Virus record (IMG/VR): IMGVR_UViG_3300010885_043927
Source: an uncultured virus (IMG/VR IMGVR_UViG_3300010885_043927)
Taxonomy: Duplodnaviria > Heunggongvirae > Uroviricota > Caudoviricetes
Reading direction: 5' to 3' (one strand)
DNA length: 20,000 bases
The position numbers and the translations under genes are program-made. Under the pieces are notes generated by a model. The model saw only the letters and a list, made by a program, of their open reading frames with translations. It searched no databases and was not told where the DNA came from. Of this stretch, positions 7,350 to 19,773 are shown in pieces (within the stretch, counting starts at the first letter, position 1; each line of letters opens with the position of its first letter).

Positions 7350-8090
7350 ATGAAAATATGTTGCATAAGTGATACACACAACAAGCATCGGGAATTAAAT
7401 TTACCGGAAGCAGATCTTCTTATACATGCCGGGGATTTAACCGGCGTCGGTAGAAGATATGAAGTTGAAGATGTATTTAAGTGGTTTAAAGAAATAGCTC
7501 CTAACTTTAAGCATGGCATAGTCTTTATAGCAGGTAACCATGATATATCTTTTGATGTTAACTTTGGAGAGTTAGAATTCTTTTTAGAAGATGAGGTGGA
7601 GGTATCTAGAAAGAATAAACCGTTTTGGTTAAGACAGATACTTGAAGAGATAGAGCAAGATAACCTCAGTGTAAAATACTTAGAGAACGATTGGATAATT
7701 GTAGATGACGTAGTCATTTGGGGCTCACCTATAACACCATGGTTCCATGGAGATCGTTGGGCATTCAATAAGCATAGGGGTTATGGTATAAGAGAAGTAT
7801 GGGCTACCATACCTGAAGGCACACATGTAGTAGTAACTCATGGACCTCCTTCTTTTAAGGGAGACTTTATTCCTAGTACCGAAGAATATGTTGGCTGTGA
7901 TGACTTACGAGATGAACTAGATTACAGAATTAAACCTTTACTCCATGTATACGGCCATATTCACGAAGGATATGGAGTCTATGGAGATGGTAATAACCTA
8001 TATGCTAACGCTAGTTCCTGTAATGAGCATTACGACATAGTTAATAAGCCATTACTTTTCGAAATAGGAAGAACTATCAAAGTGTTGTAG
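7350..8090 (+). CDS. Calcineurin-like metallophosphoesterase (MPPED1/239FB-like)
   Basis: ISDTH, HAGD, AGNHD, THGPP and GHIHE motifs. Confidence 0.92.
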   Translation: MKICCISDTHNKHRELNLPEADLLIHAGDLTGVGRRYEVEDVFKWFKEIAPNFKHGIVFIAGNHDISFDVNFGELEFFLEDEVEVSRKNKPFWLRQILEEIEQDNLSVKYLENDWIIVDDVVIWGSPITPWFHGDRWAFNKHRGYGIREVWATIPEGTHVVVTHGPPSFKGDFIPSTEEYVGCDDLRDELDYRIKPLLHVYGHIHEGYGVYGDGNNLYANASSCNEHYDIVNKPLLFEIGRTIKVL

Positions 8091-8451: not shown

Positions 8452-10266
8452 ATGGCTGAAAATAGATCAGAGAAGTTCGATTCAATTACCGAACAAATTA
8501 GAGAAGAGAAAGCAAACAAAAAAGCACCTATTAAATTTCAATTACAACTTAACGAAGAACAAAAAGCAGCAAAAGAAATAATCCTTAACACAACTGTATC
8601 TATACTTTCAGGACAGGCAGGAAGTGGTAAGACATTACTAGCTTGTAACGTTGCTTTAGATATGTTATTTAAAAAGCAAGTAAAGAAGATAGTAGTAACT
8701 CGTCCTACAGTTTCAAGAGAAGAGATAGGATTCCTTCCAGGAGACTTAAAAGATAAAATGCAACCTTGGATGCAACCAATCTACTCTAACTTTTATCAGC
8801 TTTATAATAAAGATAAGATAGACGGCATTATTAAAGATGAAACAGTAGAGATAGTTCCTGTAGCCTTCATGCGTGGAAGAGCTCAGCCTTTACATAGTAA
8901 GGTGCTAACCCCTGAAGGATGGAAAGAAATGGGAAGCCTTCAAGTAGGTGAAGAGGTTATAGGAAGAAACGGAAAGCCATGTAAGATTACCGGAGTATTT
9001 CCTCAGGGTACAGAGCAGGTATACAAGATCAGCTTTACAGATGGTTCATCGGTACTTGCTTCTGGAAATCACTTATGGGAGGTAACAGATACAAACAAAC
9101 CGTTAATCAAATCAAAGATAGTAAAATCTACTCTAGAGTTAAAAGAGCAAATATTTCAACCAGGTACTAACAAAAAGAAATGGTCTCTTCCAATGGTAGA
9201 GGCTGTAGATTTTAAAGAGAAGCAGCTAACGCTTAGCCCTTACCTTCTAGGACTATTATTAGGAGATGGATGTATAAGAGCAGGAATATCGTTCTGTAGT
9301 GCAGATACAGAGCTTATCGACAAAGTACAAGAGCTTCTTCCTGAAGGTACTGTTATAAAGAAGAGAGTAGGTTCGTTATATGATTACGGCATCGGTAAGG
9401 TAGTAAGATCTAGTCACGCTAAAAATAACCTTTATAATTTACTAGATGAATTAGAGCTAATAGGTACTTCTTCTTTAACAAAGTTTATCCCTGGAGTATA
9501 CCTACTAGGTTCTATCCAGCAAAGATTAGATCTTCTTAGAGGTCTTATGGATACAGATGGGAGTATATTCTCAGGAGGTGCACATACTAAAAGAAAAACC
9601 TCTTCTGTTGCTCATTACTATACTATCTCAGACAAGCTAGCTGAAGGAGTAAAATTCTTAGTAGAATCTTTAGGGGGTACAGTAAAGGTATCTTTAAATA
9701 AAATTGCAGGAACTGTAGATAAGTACGGAAGAAACTACAACCACGATTGCTACAACCTGTCGATAAGAATGCCTGAAGCATTTAATCCTTTCTCTTTAGA
9801 ACGAAAAGCATCTTTATTTGAAGTTAGGGAAAAACCTTCTAGAAGAATAGTCTCTATTGAAGAATACTCCTTTGAAGAGACACAGTGTATATCAGTATCA
9901 GCAGAAGATTCGCTATATATAACAGATAACTGTCAGGTAACCCATAATACTTTTTTAGATTCTATAGTAATAGTAGATGAAGCTCAAAACTGTACTAACG
10001 AACAAATGAGCATGATTATATCTAGATTAGGAGTTAGGAGTAAGATGATTATTTGTGGAGATACAGCTCAAGTAGATTTAAAGTATAAAAACGAAAGCGG
10101 TTTTAGATTCTTATTAACGGTATCTAAGAAAGTAAAGGATGTAGAGACTATAATGTTAAAAACTAATCACAGACATCCAGTAGTAGAAGCTATGCTTGCA
10201 CAATACGAGGAGCTATTTGACGTAGAAGAAACTAGAAAAAAGTCTAAAGAACTGTTGCATAATTGA
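8452..10266 (+). CDS. phoH: PhoH-family ATPase interrupted by an intein
   Basis: Walker A GQAGSGKT, TRP, IGFLPGDLKDKMQPW, MRGR|TF signature split by the insert, Walker B IVDEAQN, GDTAQVD and RHP. Confidence 0.95.
   Translation: MAENRSEKFDSITEQIREEKANKKAPIKFQLQLNEEQKAAKEIILNTTVSILSGQAGSGKTLLACNVALDMLFKKQVKKIVVTRPTVSREEIGFLPGDLKDKMQPWMQPIYSNFYQLYNKDKIDGIIKDETVEIVPVAFMRGRAQPLHSKVLTPEGWKEMGSLQVGEEVIGRNGKPCKITGVFPQGTEQVYKISFTDGSSVLASGNHLWEVTDTNKPLIKSKIVKSTLELKEQIFQPGTNKKKWSLPMVEAVDFKEKQLTLSPYLLGLLLGDGCIRAGISFCSADTELIDKVQELLPEGTVIKKRVGSLYDYGIGKVVRSSHAKNNLYNLLDELELIGTSSLTKFIPGVYLLGSIQQRLDLLRGLMDTDGSIFSGGAHTKRKTSSVAHYYTISDKLAEGVKFLVESLGGTVKVSLNKIAGTVDKYGRNYNHDCYNLSIRMPEAFNPFSLERKASLFEVREKPSRRIVSIEEYSFEETQCISVSAEDSLYITDNCQVTHNTFLDSIVIVDEAQNCTNEQMSMIISRLGVRSKMIICGDTAQVDLKYKNESGFRFLLTVSKKVKDVETIMLKTNHRHPVVEAMLAQYEELFDVEETRKKSKELLHN
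8881..9948 (+). mobile_element. Class 3 intein (356 aa) with LAGLIDADG homing endonuclease
   Basis: Starts AQPLHSKVLTPEGW and ends VTHN, followed by +1 Thr. Block B SGNHLW, block F TQCISV; LAGLIDADG motifs LLGLLLGDG and LLRGLMDTDG. Confidence 0.93.
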
Positions 10267-10819: not shown

Positions 10820-10978
10820 ATGGAACTTTTAGCATTATTTGGACTTATTGTATTATTAGCATCACCATTTATTTGGTTATGGATACGTGGATTTGATTAC
10901 ATGAATACGAATCATCCTGATTATAAAGGTAACGACTTATTCGGATTCGATGAAGACGATAAAAATCAAATAGGATGA
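10820..10978 (+). CDS. Small membrane protein (52 aa)
   Basis: Manual translation MELLALFGLIVLLASPFIWLWIRGFDYMNTNHPDYKGNDLF...; ATGA overlap with the next gene. Confidence 0.7.
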   Translation: MELLALFGLIVLLASPFIWLWIRGFDYMNTNHPDYKGNDLFGFDEDDKNQIG

Positions 10979-11640
10979 AAATCAAATTAGAGCCTAATCA
11001 GCAACTATTTTTTACTTCAGATACTCACTACATGCATAAAAATATCTGTAGAGGAGTAACGAATTGGGTAGATGCAGATGATATTACTAGAGATTTTAAG
11101 ACATTAGATCAGATGAATGATCGAATCGTTAACGGACTCAATTCTCTAGTAGGTCAGGATGATATTTTATTTCATTTAGGTGATTGGTCATTTGGAGGTT
11201 TTGAAATGATAGAGCAGTTCCGAAATAGAATCAGCTGTAAGAATATTCATCTAGTACTAGGTAACCATGATCACCATATAGATAGAGACAGAGAAGGTAT
11301 AAGAGGTTTATTCTCTTCAGTACATCAGTACTTAGAATTAGAAGTAAAGAAGAATGGAGCTAAAAAAATGGATCAAATGCATGATACTTTTGAAGCTAAT
11401 TTTGTGTTAATGCATTACCCGTTAATGTCTTGGAATAAAATGAATGATAAGGTAATACATCTTCATGGTCATGTTCACTTACCTCCTAATAAAAGAATGG
11501 GCAAAGGTAAAATGATGGACGTAGGGGTAGATGGTAATGATTTAGATCCGATTAATATTAAAAAGGTTATTAATAAGATGCACTATCAACCTATAGCTTC
11601 TGGATTTGAATTTGATCATCATATTAAAAGAGTAGAGTAA
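10975..11640 (+). CDS. Calcineurin-like metallophosphoesterase (phage type)
   Basis: FTSDTH, HLGD, LGNHD, HYP, HLHGHVH and DVGVD motifs. Confidence 0.92.
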   Translation: MKIKLEPNQQLFFTSDTHYMHKNICRGVTNWVDADDITRDFKTLDQMNDRIVNGLNSLVGQDDILFHLGDWSFGGFEMIEQFRNRISCKNIHLVLGNHDHHIDRDREGIRGLFSSVHQYLELEVKKNGAKKMDQMHDTFEANFVLMHYPLMSWNKMNDKVIHLHGHVHLPPNKRMGKGKMMDVGVDGNDLDPINIKKVINKMHYQPIASGFEFDHHIKRVE

Positions 11641-11643
11641 AAC

Positions 11644-11777
11644 AGTCAGGTGGCGGAATGGGTAGGGGGATCCCTGCCGACGGTAGACGCTACTAGAGTA
11701 AAATGCCGGAAGTCTCCTTGATGCATCAAGCAATGTCAACTCTTGAGACTGTGCAGGTTCGAATCCTGTCCTGACTA
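11644..11777 (+). ncRNA. tRNA-like RNA 1 (134 nt): Leu/Ser-type D-arm with an inserted hairpin; expanded anticodon region with no identifiable anticodon
   Basis: Acceptor AGTCAGG/CCTGACT plus discriminator A; TGGCGGAATG...GGTAGACGC D-arm; T-arm GCAGG-TTCGAAT-CCTGT; no encoded CCA. Confidence 0.75.
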
Positions 11778-11893
11778 CGAGTAGTGAGAACCACGGTCGC
11801 AGCTATAATAGATAAGAGAAAAAGCTTTTCGGAAGCAAATTCAAATTGATGGCCAAAATGCGAGTGGTGACGAACGGGGAGAGACCCGTACAT
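11778..11893 (+). ncRNA. Structured spacer RNA between the two tRNA-like elements
   Basis: Nested stems ACCAC/GTGGT, TCGCA/TGCGA and GCTAT/ATGGC; hairpins GCTTTTCGGAAGC and ACGGG-GAGAGA-CCCGT. Confidence 0.5.
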
Positions 11894-11990
11894 AGTCAGG
11901 TAGTTTAATGGTAGAAAGCGGAAACGGGAGTAACCGAAAGGTCAGTACTATTCACTTGCCGCGGTATAGGTTCGAATCCTGTCCTGGCTA
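11894..11990 (+). ncRNA. tRNA-like RNA 2 (97 nt): anticodon loop replaced by a 37-nt GAAA-capped stem-loop
   Basis: Acceptor AGTCAGG/CCTGGCT plus A; D-arm TAGTTTAATGGTAGAA; stem GCGG/CCGC; T-arm ATAGG-TTCGAAT-CCTGT. Confidence 0.75.
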
Positions 11991-12004
11991 CTAAAAAAAT
12001 AGGT

Positions 12005-12235
12005 ATGAAAAAGGAAAATAAAATTAAAGAAACTGTTAATAGCGGAGCTGATTTTTTTATTATAGTTACTTTTGTTCCATCTGTAATATTAGCAATAGTA
12101 AAATTAGAATGGGGTATAGATATTTCTTGGGCTATAGTTTTTTTCCCTATTATTTCAATAGTATCTTTAGTAATATTAGTACCTTTATATTTCGAGTTAT
12201 CGGATAGTATTAAAAGGTTATTTAACAAAAATTAA
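12005..12235 (+). CDS. Small membrane protein with two TM helices
   Basis: Two hydrophobic segments separated by KLEWGIDISW. Confidence 0.7.
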   Translation: MKKENKIKETVNSGADFFIIVTFVPSVILAIVKLEWGIDISWAIVFFPIISIVSLVILVPLYFELSDSIKRLFNKN

Positions 12236-12761: not shown

Positions 12762-13766
12762 ATGAGTCTAAAGATTTTATATGCTTTTAACGGTACCGGT
12801 TATGGACACGCTTCACGTGCAATTTCTATCTTACCGTTATTACAACATCATGAAGTAGATATTTTAGTATCCGGAGAAATGAATCCTATCGATATTGGAT
12901 ATAAAATAAAATACCGTTTCAAAGGATTTACCTTTGTGTATAGTTACGGAAAGGTTAGCTACTGGAAGACATTTAGACAGCTTAATGTATTAGAGTTTAT
13001 AAAAAACATATTCACATTAGATGTTACACAGTACGACTTAGTTATATCTGATTTTGAACCTATATCAGCATATGCTGCTAAGTTAAGAGTAGTAAAGTCC
13101 CTATCCTTATCTCATCATGCTGCGTTCTTATCTAAGAATACTCCTCGACCATATAAAATAGATCATATGGCTGAATGGATATTAAAGAATTACGCTCCGT
13201 GTAAATATAATATTGGATTCCATTTTGATAAGTATGATGACTTTATATTAGCACCTCACATCAGAAGTGTTATACGTGATAATAAAGATAAAACTGAACG
13301 TAAAAATTACATATTAGTTTACTTATCAGCATATAAAGTAGAAGACTTAGTTAATATATTTAGCAAATATAAGGATTTTAAATTTGTGATATTCTCATCT
13401 CAAATAGACAAACCAGGCTGGAATAACTCAAATGTTAAATTTAGATCAGCTAATCAATCTGAATTTATGTATGCTTTGCTACAATGTAGGGGAGTAATTA
13501 CAGGTGGTGGATTTGAAACAGTAGCTGAAGCATTATACTTAAATAAACCTGTACTAACAATACCAATTAAAGGACAATATGAACAGGAATGTAATGCAAC
13601 TGCAGCAAGTAGATTTCCTAATGGTTATAAAGGTACATTAGCTCCAGTATATTTAGAACATTTCCTATATAAAACATTTGAATCAGGTATTCAGAATGAT
13701 TTTAAAATATCAACAGACGAAGAAGTACTACAAGCAATAGAAAACGTACTATATGACCAAGTATAA
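12762..13766 (+). CDS. Glycosyltransferase, GT-B fold (MJ1255/VC2487-like, MurG/GT28-related)
   Basis: GTGYGHASRA, DLVISDFEP and GGFETVAEALYLNKPVLTIPIKGQYEQECNA. Confidence 0.88.
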   Translation: MSLKILYAFNGTGYGHASRAISILPLLQHHEVDILVSGEMNPIDIGYKIKYRFKGFTFVYSYGKVSYWKTFRQLNVLEFIKNIFTLDVTQYDLVISDFEPISAYAAKLRVVKSLSLSHHAAFLSKNTPRPYKIDHMAEWILKNYAPCKYNIGFHFDKYDDFILAPHIRSVIRDNKDKTERKNYILVYLSAYKVEDLVNIFSKYKDFKFVIFSSQIDKPGWNNSNVKFRSANQSEFMYALLQCRGVITGGGFETVAEALYLNKPVLTIPIKGQYEQECNATAASRFPNGYKGTLAPVYLEHFLYKTFESGIQNDFKISTDEEVLQAIENVLYDQV

Positions 13767-14475
13767 AACAATTATAGTATCTGATATTCATTTAGGAACT
13801 AAAGACAGTCAGGCTAAAGAATTTATTGAGTTCTTAGATAATTACTCTTGTAATACTTTAATATTAAATGGAGATATTATAGATGCTTGGGCTTTAGAAA
13901 GAGGGAGCAAATGGAGAAAGCAACACACTAAAGTTATTAAGAAGCTCTTAACTATTTCGAAAAATACTAAGCTTATTTACCTTAGAGGTAATCATGATGA
14001 TTTTATTAAAGATTTTTTTAAAGTATCTATAAAAGGTAATATAGAAATTTTAGAAGACTATAAGCTTAAAATAGGATCAAAGAACTATCTAGTATTTCAT
14101 GGAGATATCCTAGATGTATTTAGTTCAACATGGAAATGGGTTGCCAAATTAGGATCGATAGGATATGACTTAGCTTTATCTATTAACACTTTTTACAACA
14201 GGTATCGAAAACTACGAGGAAAACCGTACCTTTCTATATCCAGGCAAATCAAACATAGAGTTAAACAAGCAGTATCGTTTATAAATAACTTTGAAGAAAA
14301 TGCATGCAGAATAGCTAAGCAAAGAAACTGTGAAGGAGCAATTTGTGGACATATTCATACTGCAGATAATAAAGTATTAAATGGAGTTCATTATCTTAAC
14401 TCCGGGGATTGGGTAGAGTCTAAAACTGCTATCCTTATAACGAAGGATGACGATATAATAACTTATAACTTCTAA
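13753..14475 (+). CDS. UDP-2,3-diacylglucosamine diphosphatase-like metallophosphoesterase (LpxH/YbbF-like)
   Basis: SDIHLGT, LNGDIID, RGNHD, HGDILD, CGHIH and YLNSGDWVES. Confidence 0.85.
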   Translation: MTKYKTIIVSDIHLGTKDSQAKEFIEFLDNYSCNTLILNGDIIDAWALERGSKWRKQHTKVIKKLLTISKNTKLIYLRGNHDDFIKDFFKVSIKGNIEILEDYKLKIGSKNYLVFHGDILDVFSSTWKWVAKLGSIGYDLALSINTFYNRYRKLRGKPYLSISRQIKHRVKQAVSFINNFEENACRIAKQRNCEGAICGHIHTADNKVLNGVHYLNSGDWVESKTAILITKDDDIITYNF

Positions 14476-19196: not shown

Positions 19197-19491
19197 GACA
19201 GTAGAGAGTAGCAAGAATAGCTAAGGTGTAGCTAATTGGTTTAATTAGGTACTATGTGTCACAAGGTACTAAATGAAATAGGTAGTAGGTGTGTAGAGAA
19301 GAAGAGAGAGAAAGTGTAGTAGCAGAAACTGAAAATTAGGGGCCGAAGGGCCTCCCCCCTTGAAAAAAGCCTCCTAGGCAAAATATATAAGAATGCTCCT
19401 TGCTCCCCTAGTTCGATTCGATACAAGGTACTAGGTAGTACACGGTACCGTAGAGTACAATCGCATTGTATATACACTAGCTCCTAAGGGA

Positions 19492-19523
19492 GTTGCTTTT
19501 CTGCTATATAATTCTTACCTTTA
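19492..19523 (+). promoter_or_regulatory. Bacteroidota-type promoter-like motif
   Basis: GTTG-N20-TACCTTTA; same -7 octamer as at 2770. Confidence 0.6.
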
Positions 19524-19620
19524 CGGTACCATTGCTATACCAGCGATACTAAGAAGTACAATCGCATTGTATAACATTGTTTAAGGGGTTACAAGAGAGT
19601 AATCAAGCATTTAGAATGAG

Positions 19621-19646
19621 GAGCCGGCCTAGCCGGCTTTTCTTTT
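19621..19646 (+). terminator. Rho-independent terminator
   Basis: AGCCGGC-CTA-GCCGGCT hairpin followed by TTTCTTTT. Confidence 0.8.
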
Positions 19647-19773
19647 CCCTGAGGGTAGAGGAGACAGGATCAAGGTAAGGAGGTAAACAATTAGATATTT
19701 ATATACATAAACACAGGAGCCATGAGAGTACAATCGCATTGTATAATAGGGATCCAGGAGCTAACTAAAGAAC

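Follow-up and report, generated by a model that had tools for sequence, protein, structure and literature searches.

Small RNAs that are shaped like tRNAs and do not decode have been known from bacteriophages T4 and T5 for decades. The rnaC and rnaD genes of T4 (species 1 and 2 RNAs) and RNA1 and RNA2 of T5, annotated as 'tRNA-like stable RNA with unknown functions', yield RNAs of 119-144 nt that are encoded next to tRNA genes in large lytic phages and are matured with the tRNAs. Here we describe a block of 347 nt (positions 11644-11990) in a 20,000-nt stretch of DNA from an uncultured phage of a lake, the whole of which was analysed and is called the window below. Lying between two protein genes, the block is best explained as encoding three small non-coding RNAs: two tRNA-like elements and a spacer RNA. 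Like the T4 and T5 stable RNAs, the two elements are small and non-decoding. Nonetheless, none of them has the frame of the window elements: RNA1 of T5 gives only a weak end-to-end match to the tRNA model (24 bits, below threshold, as against 30.5 and 38.8 for the window elements), while RNA2, rnaC and rnaD give none at E <= 1. Furthermore, the T4 and T5 RNAs are single-copy and sit inside tRNA clusters, whereas the window block lies in no such cluster and belongs to a family in which one frame carries more than 100 different inserts.

Several other systems resemble the elements in part. The engineered 'tRNA scaffold' of Ponchon and Dardel reportedly uses Lys and Met tRNA bodies for recombinant RNA in E. 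coli. Its design is the same, with foreign RNA in place of the anticodon arm and a chimera that is processed and protected like a tRNA; however, the scaffold is man-made, whereas the window design is natural, of leucine type, and equipped with D-loop modules and a dedicated leader hairpin. As in tmRNA, an acceptor/T-arm domain without anticodon encloses a large insert between its halves, but the elements have no alanine pair and no tag frame, are much shorter, occur (as a family) many times per genome and look restricted to phages. YrlA (Rfam RF02553), a Y RNA of bacteria and phages that includes a tRNA-like domain, is likewise a non-decoding mimic of the tRNA D/T elbow. Its ends form the Ro-binding stem and its tRNA-like part is internal; the window elements have the reverse topology, their termini forming the acceptor stem. 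Searched up to E = 10, the region 11500-12100 gave no hit to RF02553, and there was no Ro/TROVE domain among the Pfam matches of the window. Lastly, the mascRNA of MALAT1 and the tRNA-miRNA units of MHV68 are tRNA-shaped handles in eukaryotic and herpesviral RNAs, where they recruit RNase P or RNase Z and so set the ends of adjacent RNAs; these belong to another domain of life and hold no variable insert within the tRNA-like body, unlike the elements described here. The one match of the mascRNA model in the block, on the minus strand, scores 14.5 bits (threshold 42.5) and is noise.

Results

Layout of the block and its flanking genes

The block starts 3 nt beyond the stop codon of a phosphoesterase gene, which shares 69% nucleotide identity with the 'calcineurin-like phosphoesterase' gene of Flavobacterium phage immuto, and A73 of its last element lies 14 nt before the ATG of a gene for a small hydrophobic protein (Table 1). 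Its surroundings stand out in composition, with a G+C content of 0.45 in 11601-12000 against roughly 0.25-0.42 in the remainder of the window. One metagenome contig (L170) is identical to the window, and 24 sequencing runs hold the stretch, the number of RNA runs on record among them being zero. Between 10800 and 12800, sigma-70-like sites were not enriched and no terminators were found. The motif TANNTTTG, which we take to be the consensus of the Bacteroidota -7 promoter motif, occurs 31 times against 25.8 expected, and not at all on the plus strand within 240 nt upstream of the first element. Antisense complementarity of the inserts and spacer to the remaining window (20 kb tested) did not exceed that of shuffled controls. 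In Rfam searches of 11500-12100 up to E = 10, nothing credible appeared besides tRNA. Default ARAGORN runs, for which an earlier note on this DNA had expected undetermined or pseudogene calls or none, called no tRNA in the 20-kb window.

Table 1. Features of the RNA block and the genes on either side (window coordinates).
Feature	Position	Strand	Details
Phosphoesterase gene, upstream flank	10975..11640	+	ORF list; phrog_547 phosphoesterase, E 6e-38
Element 1, 134-nt non-decoding tRNA-like RNA	11644..11777	+	Rfam tRNA 30.5 bits; constrained fold
Element 1 acceptor strands	11644-11650 / 11770-11776	+	
Element 1 D stem	11653-11655 / 11688-11690	+	
Element 1 D-loop hairpin	11661..11678	+	7 bp, GGTAGGG / CCCTGCC, loop GGAT
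Element 1 insert, 62 nt	11691..11752	+	At anticodon/variable position; constrained fold
Element 1 T arm	11753-11769	+	A73 at 11777; C74 = 11778
Spacer RNA, 116 nt, between elements 1 and 2	11778..11893	+	Conserved in L127, L171, L172
Spacer proposed helices a	11781-11785/11802-11806; 11818-11820/11840-11842; 11824-11828/11832-11836	+	
Spacer proposed helices b	11790-11794/11864-11868; 11798-11801/11859-11862	+	Cross 11781-11785/11802-11806, giving a proposed pseudoknot
Spacer proposed helix c	11874-11878/11885-11889	+	
Leader hairpin module, spacer 3' end	11868..11893	+	TGAC 11868-11871, 5-bp stem, GAGAGA loop, ACAT
Element 2, 97-nt non-decoding tRNA-like RNA	11894..11990	+	Rfam tRNA 38.8 bits, 37-nt insert
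Element 2 acceptor strands	11894-11900 / 11983-11989	+	Including U3-G70
Element 2 D arm and T arm	11903-11917; 11966-11982	+	
Element 2 insert	11919..11961	+	3-bp closing stem, irregular GAAA-capped hairpin (11926-11949)
Element 2 3' end	11990	+	A73 at 11990; C74 = 11991
Small hydrophobic protein gene, downstream flank	12005..12235	+	ORF list; weak phrog_1374 match

Two elements on a common frame

The earlier note had described two elements with a shared 5' acceptor strand, a near-identical 3' end, recognisable D-arms and unrelated, enlarged middles without a 7-nt anticodon loop, and in all of this it was correct. AGTCAGGT occurs twice in the window, at 11644 and 11894, as does the 24-mer AGGTTCGAATCCTGTCCTGRCTAC (11755-11778 and 11968-11991; none in shuffled sequences). 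The A/G difference between the 3' strands falls at pair 3:70 and is neutral for pairing (U-A versus U-G), neither element encodes CCA, both again as had been stated, and C74 is encoded in both. An anticodon stem with a 7-nt loop is absent from the constrained folds of both elements. The enlargement described for element 1 proved to have two parts, the insert at the anticodon/variable position being joined by the 7-bp hairpin in the D loop.

Both elements are best explained as sharing the frame of a leucine-type tRNA, composed of the acceptor stem AGUCAGG/CCUGRCU, a D arm, a T arm and the elbow nucleotides; the D arm of this frame is that of the annotated tRNA-Leu(TAG) of Synechococcus phage S-CAM3. 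Where the earlier note had expected undetermined, pseudogene or no calls, the Rfam tRNA model RF00005 does match both elements above its threshold of 29 bits and from end to end (model positions 1-71), with skipped stretches of 37 nt (element 2) and 58 + 19 nt (element 1), although element 1 was scored only in a more permissive regional search.

The insert of element 1 consists of a 19-nt A-rich unpaired stretch followed by a long irregular hairpin (11711-11716 with 11745-11750), and U48 lies at 11752. A 24-nt piece of it was found in no viral contig, and nothing significant was found among the compared loci; that this insert stands without any relative is a point against the reading favoured in the Discussion, as is the C, in place of U, at position -1 of the same element. 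Its D-loop hairpin is one of few such modules, D-loop inserts being present in 5 of 149 family members.

Covariation in relatives of element 2

Folding of the single sequences gives weak z-scores (-1.50, -0.06 and -1.81), which also counts against the favoured reading, and the case for structure therefore comes from comparison with relatives. A 23-nt core of the element 2 insert is identical in 8 additional viral loci. Near-invariance extends to adjacent insert positions beyond the search pattern; it is the acceptor, D and T stems that differ among the relatives. In one of them (L163) the insert is kept although the acceptor stem is AUGGGAG/CUCCUUU. Across the 7 distinct relatives of this subfamily, both sides have changed in 10 of 28 pairs (four in the acceptor stem, three in the D stem, two in the closing stem of the insert and one in the T stem). 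Pairing is found in 98% of cells, and in 28-41% once the alignment is slid. All four stems of element 2 are supported by compensatory changes. Decay of homologues without such changes, which the earlier note had raised against itself, was not seen among these relatives.

The spacer RNA and its leader hairpin

The spacer joins the upstream C74 and the downstream +1 position exactly, between two tRNA-like elements, in all four lineages that hold it, and the bracketing elements have four different acceptor types. From its 4 sequences only, 27 pairs can be aligned, with 96% of cells paired (31-48% when slid) and 5 double-sided changes; the spacer is probably pseudoknotted. Coding on the minus strand was considered and rejected: the 55-aa ORF of the window (11726-11893) is closed in the other three homologues of the spacer. 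The window, conversely, closes an antisense frame that is open in two homologues and, after a 1-nt insertion, in the stretch shared by L171. None of the antisense frames stays open throughout the four sequences, and the homologues are separated by single-base indels.

At its 3' end the spacer carries a hairpin module, present once in the window, whose ACAT lies immediately 5' of position +1 of element 2. We found 23 distinct instances of this leader hairpin in the 182 kb compared, 21 of them 3-6 nt before a tRNA-like 5' end; 17 distinct motifs are fully paired, against 0.03 in shuffles, and the stems covary. A role as a general promoter was discarded, since in two tRNA arrays the module stands only before family elements and before none of 52 canonical tRNAs.

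Alleles at the site and exchange of modules

The nearest record (G001, 65.7 kb) encodes a phosphoesterase that is 100% identical over 221 aa, its flanks are 96.6-97.1% identical (97% at the nucleotide level for the small hydrophobic protein gene), and yet it holds one element of 105 nt at the site. This allele has no spacer, bears G73 and lacks the D-loop hairpin; G001 contains 2 tRNA-model matches, the element itself and one below threshold. A single 105-nt element beside an identical flanking protein means that the cassette has been swapped inside constant parts. A third allele was seen at the site in run X4 (record 13, coverage up to 11690); it has the D-loop hairpin with another loop, as does locus L063. 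In relatives at the level of 72-74% protein identity, the gene pair is present but no RNA separates the two genes.

Contigs from four lake metagenomes show the same ends connected over different middles, with several such contigs in each run and as many as 10 for a single joint; the joint from 11661 to 11754 is found on 8, 10, 3 and 8 contigs. The same insert is also present in two different frames. As many phages that occur together have the constant parts in common, recombination inside these parts exchanges entire modules.

A family of elements across phages

Both elements belong to a family defined by AGTCAGG and a D arm of leucine type on the 5' side and by a T arm and the acceptor strand CCTGRCT on the 3' side, with an insert replacing the anticodon and variable arms and a trailer of A73-C74 without CCA. 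At least 136 viral-contig stretches contain the 3' 21-mer common to the elements, and as many as 7 copies lie on one contig. Among the matches listed, 154 of 163 have the 5' partner strand, which gives 149 distinct elements of 61-189 nt, with inserts of 9-137 nt. A scan anchored on the 5' half, and so independent of the 3' 21-mer, found at least 122 viral stretches, and a fitting T arm and acceptor strand are present in 112 of the 123 distinct stretches listed. The earlier note had conceived of a conserved top half with variable cargo. With 125 insert clusters among the 149 elements, and with the tRNA core largely kept (U8 in 138, A14 in 119, A15 in 122 and U48 in 121 of 145), that idea is supported for the family; it does not hold for the insert of element 2, which is constant.

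The flanks resemble those of tRNA genes. Among 145 family elements, U-1 is found in 113, A73 in 135, C74 in 142 and CCA in none, while the canonical tRNAs in related phage arrays (n = 55) have C74 in 55, CCA in 12 and U-1 in 38. On these counts, the element flanks (U-1, A73, C74, no CCA) match those of ordinary tRNA genes in the related arrays. Within the inserts, GNRA hairpins are present in 28 (13.9 expected) and extra T-arm-like hairpins in 5 elements (0.2 expected). Family inserts fold only mildly better than shuffled sequences (mean z -0.76), a further point against the favoured reading.

The family is very large and looks confined to phages. Its 20 genome matches are all metagenome-bin contigs, with none in isolate genomes, and among 707 cultured-phage records with partial matches none covered at least 80% of the G001 element. 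Other members lie in arrays with 33 tRNA-model matches each (G002 and G004). Rfam searches of 20 long-element loci (E up to 0.05) gave, besides tRNA, only a sub-threshold Plastid-ycf2 match (30.8 bits against 65.7), which lies antisense to a canonical tRNA. In the literature and Rfam we found no description or family for these phage RNAs, whether frame elements or spacer. The spreadsheets of PMC10690425 contain none of the frame motifs searched for; the family may nevertheless be among the 10,006 unnamed candidates of that study.

Discussion

We propose that the block encodes tRNA-frame RNAs that are excised by tRNA-processing enzymes, with the inserts as their working parts, a reading to which we give about an even chance. 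The block would be cotranscribed with the flanking genes. Host RNase P would cleave at the +1 positions, 11644 and 11894, the tRNA 3'-end pathway would cut beside A73/C74 (11777/78 and 11990/91), and the ends would be completed by the CCA-adding enzyme, leaving three discrete, stable RNAs. What the comparisons show is membership in the family, selection on the RNA, flanks like those of tRNA genes and the exchange of modules. The tRNA frame would then serve as a handle for processing and stability, and the inserts would most likely be decoys of host or phage proteins, or their ligands, in takeover or counter-defence. One feature of the family fits this poorly. Were the frame only a handle, its stems could vary freely, and the acceptor sequence is nearly fixed over very different phages, which counts against the proposal. 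Something may read the acceptor sequence, or frequent recombination may homogenise it.

How much of this could be achieved by cutting alone? Mitochondrial tRNAs split polycistronic messages, and the elements could be pure punctuation of this kind, dividing the message and releasing the spacer while the inserts are tolerated filler. Element 1 follows a stop codon and element 2 precedes an ATG at short distances, the block shows no enrichment of promoter-like or terminator-like sites, and the leader hairpin would leave the upstream product with a protected 3' end. The spacer is bracketed exactly in four of four lineages by elements of four acceptor types. This abutment, with the leader and trailer signature of ordinary tRNAs, lends indirect support to the suggestion of the earlier note that the elements are a processing signal releasing the intervening RNA, the cleavage itself being presumed. 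Filler, however, would not be expected to stay invariant over 7 distinct sequences while the frame around it covaries, as the element 2 insert does. The lone element of G001 has no spacer to release, and relatives at 72-74% protein identity manage the expression of this gene pair without any intervening RNA. Ordinary small tRNAs would suffice for cutting, which leaves 9-137-nt inserts and D-loop modules unaccounted for, and we regard punctuation alone as unlikely. Exchange at the level of DNA might instead be the point, the constant parts serving mainly as homology arms between co-infecting phages and the cassettes being selfish or a source of evolvability. In favour of this, the site next to a 100% identical protein has three alleles whose break-points fall within the constant parts, lake metagenome contigs join the same ends over other middles, one insert is found in two frames, and the acceptor sequence of the family is almost fixed rather than covarying. 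Against it, the conserved positions are those of tRNA folding (U8, A14, A15-U48, GG, TTCGA), the stems covary where they have changed, and the flanks match tRNA-processing signals. It is thus more likely that exchange follows from the sharing of RNA frames than that the frames exist for it, and we hold this second account to have a similarly small chance of being right.

The remaining alternatives take the elements for tRNAs or tRNA substitutes of a known kind. Bacterial leucine identity rests on A73, the A15-U48 Levitt pair, G18G19, U8-A14 and D/T-loop contacts, and G73 in tRNA-Ser is an antideterminant against LeuRS (PMC9976931). The frame appears to keep this set (both window elements have A73, A15 and U48), and its D arm equals that of the S-CAM3 tRNA-Leu(TAG); the elements could be leucine-accepting mimics, charged by the host leucyl-tRNA synthetase and serving as sponges for the synthetase or EF-Tu, or as non-translational leucine donors. 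Nonetheless, among the 7 carriers of the element 2 insert G73 occurs in 2 and A48 in 3, the G001 allele at the same site has G73, and so have 13 of the 112 elements listed from the 5'-anchored scan. The exceptions among the insert carriers and in G001 also weaken the synthetase decoy put forward in the earlier note. Moreover, the host synthetase, probably of Bacteroidota type, may follow other identity rules, and we consider charging with leucine improbable. Broken or intron-bearing tRNA genes, whether decaying pseudogenes or tRNAs restored by removal of the insert, would explain why RF00005 scores exceed threshold and why the intron mode of ARAGORN proposes Gly(GCC) and Val(CAC). These proposals, which bear on the canonical tRNA after intron removal that the earlier note had allowed for, were rejected: they place introns at the non-canonical positions 29/30 and 35/36, the Gly call needs a 30-nt extra arm, and the proposed CAC loop has 1-nt insertions in two relatives (L168 and L163), so that no 7-nt loop is conserved. 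Decay is excluded by covariation and invariant inserts. Group I introns are much longer than the inserts, and among the introns and ribozymes of Rfam no family matched in the block (E up to 10) or in the 20 long-element loci (E up to 0.05). Taken together, we judge this origin very improbable. Least credible of all is a miniature tmRNA-like rescue RNA, in which the tRNA-like domain would carry an internal coding or ribosome-directed module. The topology is indeed the same, with ends that form the acceptor stem, a T arm that is kept and foreign RNA replacing the anticodon arm. A tmRNA search with ARAGORN (-m) at relaxed threshold nevertheless found none, nor did Rfam up to E = 10, the G3-U70 alanine mark is absent (3:70 being U-A or U-G), and the 43-62-nt inserts have no conserved reading frame.

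Returning to tRNA-frame RNAs with working inserts, a broader and more tentative form of this proposal, possible and in our view rather less than probable, is that lake phages, whose hosts are probably Bacteroidota, maintain a modular RNA display on one tRNA-Leu-derived frame, equipped with a leader hairpin of its own and flanks of tRNA type. By means of this frame more than 100 effector RNA domains would be expressed, excised and stabilised, to be presented as decoys or ligands in takeover or counter-defence, and they would be traded between unrelated phages by recombination in the frame. If true, such a display system would be the natural RNA counterpart of swappable anti-defence gene cassettes and would hold the key to what the stable RNAs of T4 and T5 do, a puzzle of 50 years. 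The family offers what those phages did not: hundreds of natural variants with a fixed frame and exchangeable inserts, structures backed by covariation, and alleles distinguished by nothing but their RNA module. It thereby becomes testable how far bacteria use tRNA-processing enzymes to produce RNAs other than tRNAs, whether RNA effectors are deployed by phages on a large scale, and whether nature invented the tRNA scaffold of biotechnology.

Finally, tRNA finders miss or mislabel such genes, which distorts phage tRNA counts and the inferences on codon usage and suppressor tRNAs drawn from them. ARAGORN calls a tRNA in 28 of the 149 family elements, with a motley and arbitrary set of anticodons.

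Two tRNA-like elements without an anticodon arm

Both elements proposed in the earlier note lie where it had placed them: the 24-mer AGGTTCGAATCCTGTCCTGRCTAC recurs at their 3' ends (11755-11778 and 11968-11991; no occurrence in shuffles), and the 5' strand AGTCAGGT is found at the expected sites, 11644 and 11894. The G+C content of the element block (0.45) is the highest in the window, the remainder of which ranges over roughly 0.25-0.42. Surrounding genes are on the + strand throughout, with 3 nt between the stop codon of the upstream phosphoesterase and element 1, and 14 nt between the end of element 2 and the next ATG. No promoter-like or terminator-like sites were enriched within the block.

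Features of the element block
Feature	Position	Strand	Anatomy
Element 1	11644-11777	+	134 nt; 7-bp acceptor stem, leucine-type D arm, U48, T arm, A73
D-loop hairpin of element 1	11661-11678	+	7 bp; interrupts the leucine-type D arm
Element 1 middle		+	19-nt unpaired stretch, then long irregular hairpin at the variable-arm position
Leader hairpin	last 26 nt of the spacer	+	TGAC, two bases, 5-bp stem, GAGAGA loop, other half of the stem, ACAT
Element 2	11894-11990	+	97 nt; acceptor stem as in element 1 but U3-G70; 4-bp D stem, T arm, A73
Element 2 insert		+	3-bp closing stem leading to an irregular GAAA-capped hairpin at 11926-11949

It had been expected that tRNA finders would return undetermined or pseudo calls, or none. 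This held for ARAGORN with default settings, which called no tRNA anywhere in the 20-kb window, but not for the Rfam tRNA model, which matched both elements end to end above its 29-bit threshold (element 2, 38.8 bits; element 1, 30.5 bits) by skipping 37 nt in element 2 and 58 + 19 nt in element 1. In intron mode ARAGORN proposed Gly(GCC) and Val(CAC), placing the introns at unusual sites. Single-sequence folding energies were ordinary (z = -1.50, -0.06 and -1.81). Small stable RNAs are annotated in T4 (rnaC, rnaD) and T5 (RNA1 and RNA2, 'tRNA-like stable RNA with unknown functions'); among those compared, T5 RNA1 alone matched the tRNA model, weakly (24 bits).

A family of phage RNAs with a constant frame and variable inserts

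The frame shared by the two elements, namely a constant AGUCAGG-type acceptor stem, D arm and T arm, is widespread. At least 136 viral-contig stretches contain its 3' 21-mer, with at most seven copies per contig among the matches listed, and the 5' partner strand accompanies 154 of 163 matches in the collected loci. These paired matches yield 149 distinct elements of 61-189 nt (median 103), just 28 of which are called by ARAGORN, with motley anticodons. At positions outside the search pattern (tRNA numbering, n=145) conservation is strong, with U8 in 138, A14 in 119, A15 in 122 and U48 in 121, and at the flanks A73 in 135, C74 in 142 and U-1 in 113. Another scan, which started from the 5' half and is thus free of 3'-anchor bias, gave 123 distinct stretches. 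In 112 of these a matching T arm and acceptor strand followed; of the 112, 55 contain the exact 3' 21-mer, 96 have A73, 13 G73 and 105 C74. In three of the 123 (loci L198, L201 and L223) a hairpin with a TAGAAAT loop sits downstream of the T arm, within or just after the acceptor 3' strand; this may be a small mobile or intron-like element targeting the frame.

Inserts are highly diverse, the 149 elements falling into 125 clusters with 112 singletons. GNRA-capped hairpins show some enrichment (28 elements versus 13.9 expected), extra T-arm-like hairpins occur in 5/149 (0.2 expected), and D-loop inserts likewise in 5/149. The D-loop hairpin of element 1 recurs at another viral locus, L063, and in a further allele of the window locus; for the element 1 insert, no relative was found in the viral contigs and collected loci searched.

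Among cultured phages, none of the 707 records with partial matches covered 80% or more of an element. One genome each from 185,579 prokaryotic species gave 20 stretches with the family motif, all on metagenome-bin contigs and none in an isolate genome; 11 came from bins labelled Bacteroidota. Judged by the phosphoesterase gene, the window is closest, among cultured phages, to a Flavobacterium phage, and we infer the host solely from these labels and this relative. We found no published account of the family; the spreadsheets of PMC10690425 contain none of the frame motifs searched for.

Selection on the elements and their proposed route of maturation

As judged by sequence comparison, the family elements evolve as RNAs maintained by selection and are no mere remnants. 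Eight further viral loci contain the 23-nt core of the element 2 insert, and together with the window they provide seven distinct sequences. Scored on a cloverleaf-like structure, these pair in 98% of cells, compared with 28-41% after sliding of the partner strand, and 10 of 28 pairs have changed on both sides (acceptor 4, D stem 3, insert closing stem 2, T stem 1). At one locus (L163) the acceptor stem is wholly replaced (AUGGGAG/CUCCUUU) and the insert is unchanged, including positions beyond the search pattern, which argues that constraint in this subfamily is strongest on the insert.

The frame could in principle serve for charging with leucine. Its conserved A73, A15-U48, G18G19 and U8-A14 constitute the bacterial leucine set, its D arm is that of an annotated cyanophage tRNA-Leu(TAG), and a review (PMC9976931) states that E. 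coli LeuRS can still charge tRNA-Leu without its anticodon and variable arms. However, carriers of the element 2 insert differ both at the discriminator (A73 in 5/7, G73 in 2/7) and at position 48 (U48 in 4/7, A48 in 3/7), and a related virus, G001, has G73 at the corresponding site.

The best evidence for how the elements would be matured comes from their flanks. Across 55 canonical phage tRNA genes identified with ARAGORN (52 in arrays L183, L184 and L185 of the related large phages G002 and G004, three in L003 and L179), C74 is universal, CCA is encoded in 12 and U-1 is present in 38; the bases after C74 are mostly A-rich. This suggests that the 3'-end pathway keeps or needs C74. The family elements have the same C74 and U-1 pattern, and would on this basis enter normal tRNA maturation, i.e. 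RNase P cleavage, 3' trimming and CCA completion.

In the arrays of two phages, every copy of the leader hairpin precedes a family element, and none precedes any of the 52 canonical tRNAs. The 182 kb of collected DNA contain 23 copies of the module, 21 of them 3-6 nt ahead of a tRNA-like 5' end. With no pairing requirement, the sequence pattern of the module has 27 instances, 17 paired at 5/5 positions (shuffled control: 4.5 and 0.03). There are about ten different stem sequences; the 100% pairing in their alignment arises by construction, as only paired instances were selected. Possible roles of the hairpin are to shield the 3' end that RNase P cleavage would leave on the upstream product, or to modulate that cleavage.

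A probable structured RNA between the elements

A copy of the spacer (11778-11893) at locus L127 matches it with 86% identity over 88 nt, and a metagenome scan added L171 and L172, making four distinct lineages; L170, identical to the window across the stretch shown and probably the contig from which it derives, was not counted as independent. In 4/4 lineages the spacer starts at the C after the discriminator of the upstream tRNA-like element and ends at the base preceding +1 of the downstream one, and four different acceptor stems are represented among the elements that flank it. The downstream element in L172 combines an L163-type frame with the element 2 insert, so this insert accompanies the spacer in two lineages. 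A model of six helices, including one pseudoknot, pairs 96% of cells, against 31-48% when slid, with five pairs changed on both sides; covariation among these four sequences lends the model modest support. No antisense reading frame is open in all four copies.

The element upstream of the L171 spacer copy has the acceptor GCTCACG/CGTGAGC and, mid-element, a second complete T-arm-like hairpin, GGGGTTCGAGTCCCC. Another conserved RNA, ~130 nt long, precedes family elements in two contigs (L030:642-831 and L048:599-788, both on the - strand), in L030 between two of them; it starts with CTGACACGCACGGCA and closes with the leader hairpin module. Inter-element gaps seem to hold several RNA families.

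Turnover of the cassette

G001 is the nearest of the virus records compared. Its phosphoesterase is 100% identical to that of the window over 221 aa, and the flanks are 96.6% and 97.1% identical; at the site itself is one 105-nt element with another insert and no D-loop hairpin. Similarity is lost at ~11660 and regained at 11968, both break-points falling within constant parts. A third allele, on a contig from sequencing run X4, matches until 11690, continues with 98 differing letters and matches again from 11984. Runs from four lake metagenomes each contain several contigs, as many as ten for one joint, that link identical constant ends across other middles, and assemblies of the phage break at the constant ends of elements. 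No RNA occupies the site in relatives whose phosphoesterase is 72-74% identical. Together, the allele differences and RNA-free relatives identify the cassette as accessory and exchanged by modules.

Other features of the window

Three metallophosphoesterase-type genes lie within 7 kb (7350-8090, 10975-11640 and 13753-14475), near genes for a non-specific nuclease, a class-3 lipase, two glycosyltransferases and an HNH endonuclease; this looks like an accessory or host-takeover region. An in-frame insert containing a LAGLIDADG domain interrupts the PhoH-like ATPase gene (8452-10266), the two PhoH stretches flanking residues ~145-495; it is an intein-type insertion. Finally, the 18-nt palindrome GTACAATCGCATTGTATA has three exact copies (19455-19472, 19556-19573 and 19728-19745; 0.01 in shuffles) in a gene-poor stretch of roughly 575 nt (19197-19773), with G+C-rich hairpins nearby at about 19340-19358 and 19621-19640; the repeats resemble operator or promoter sites preceding the next block of genes.
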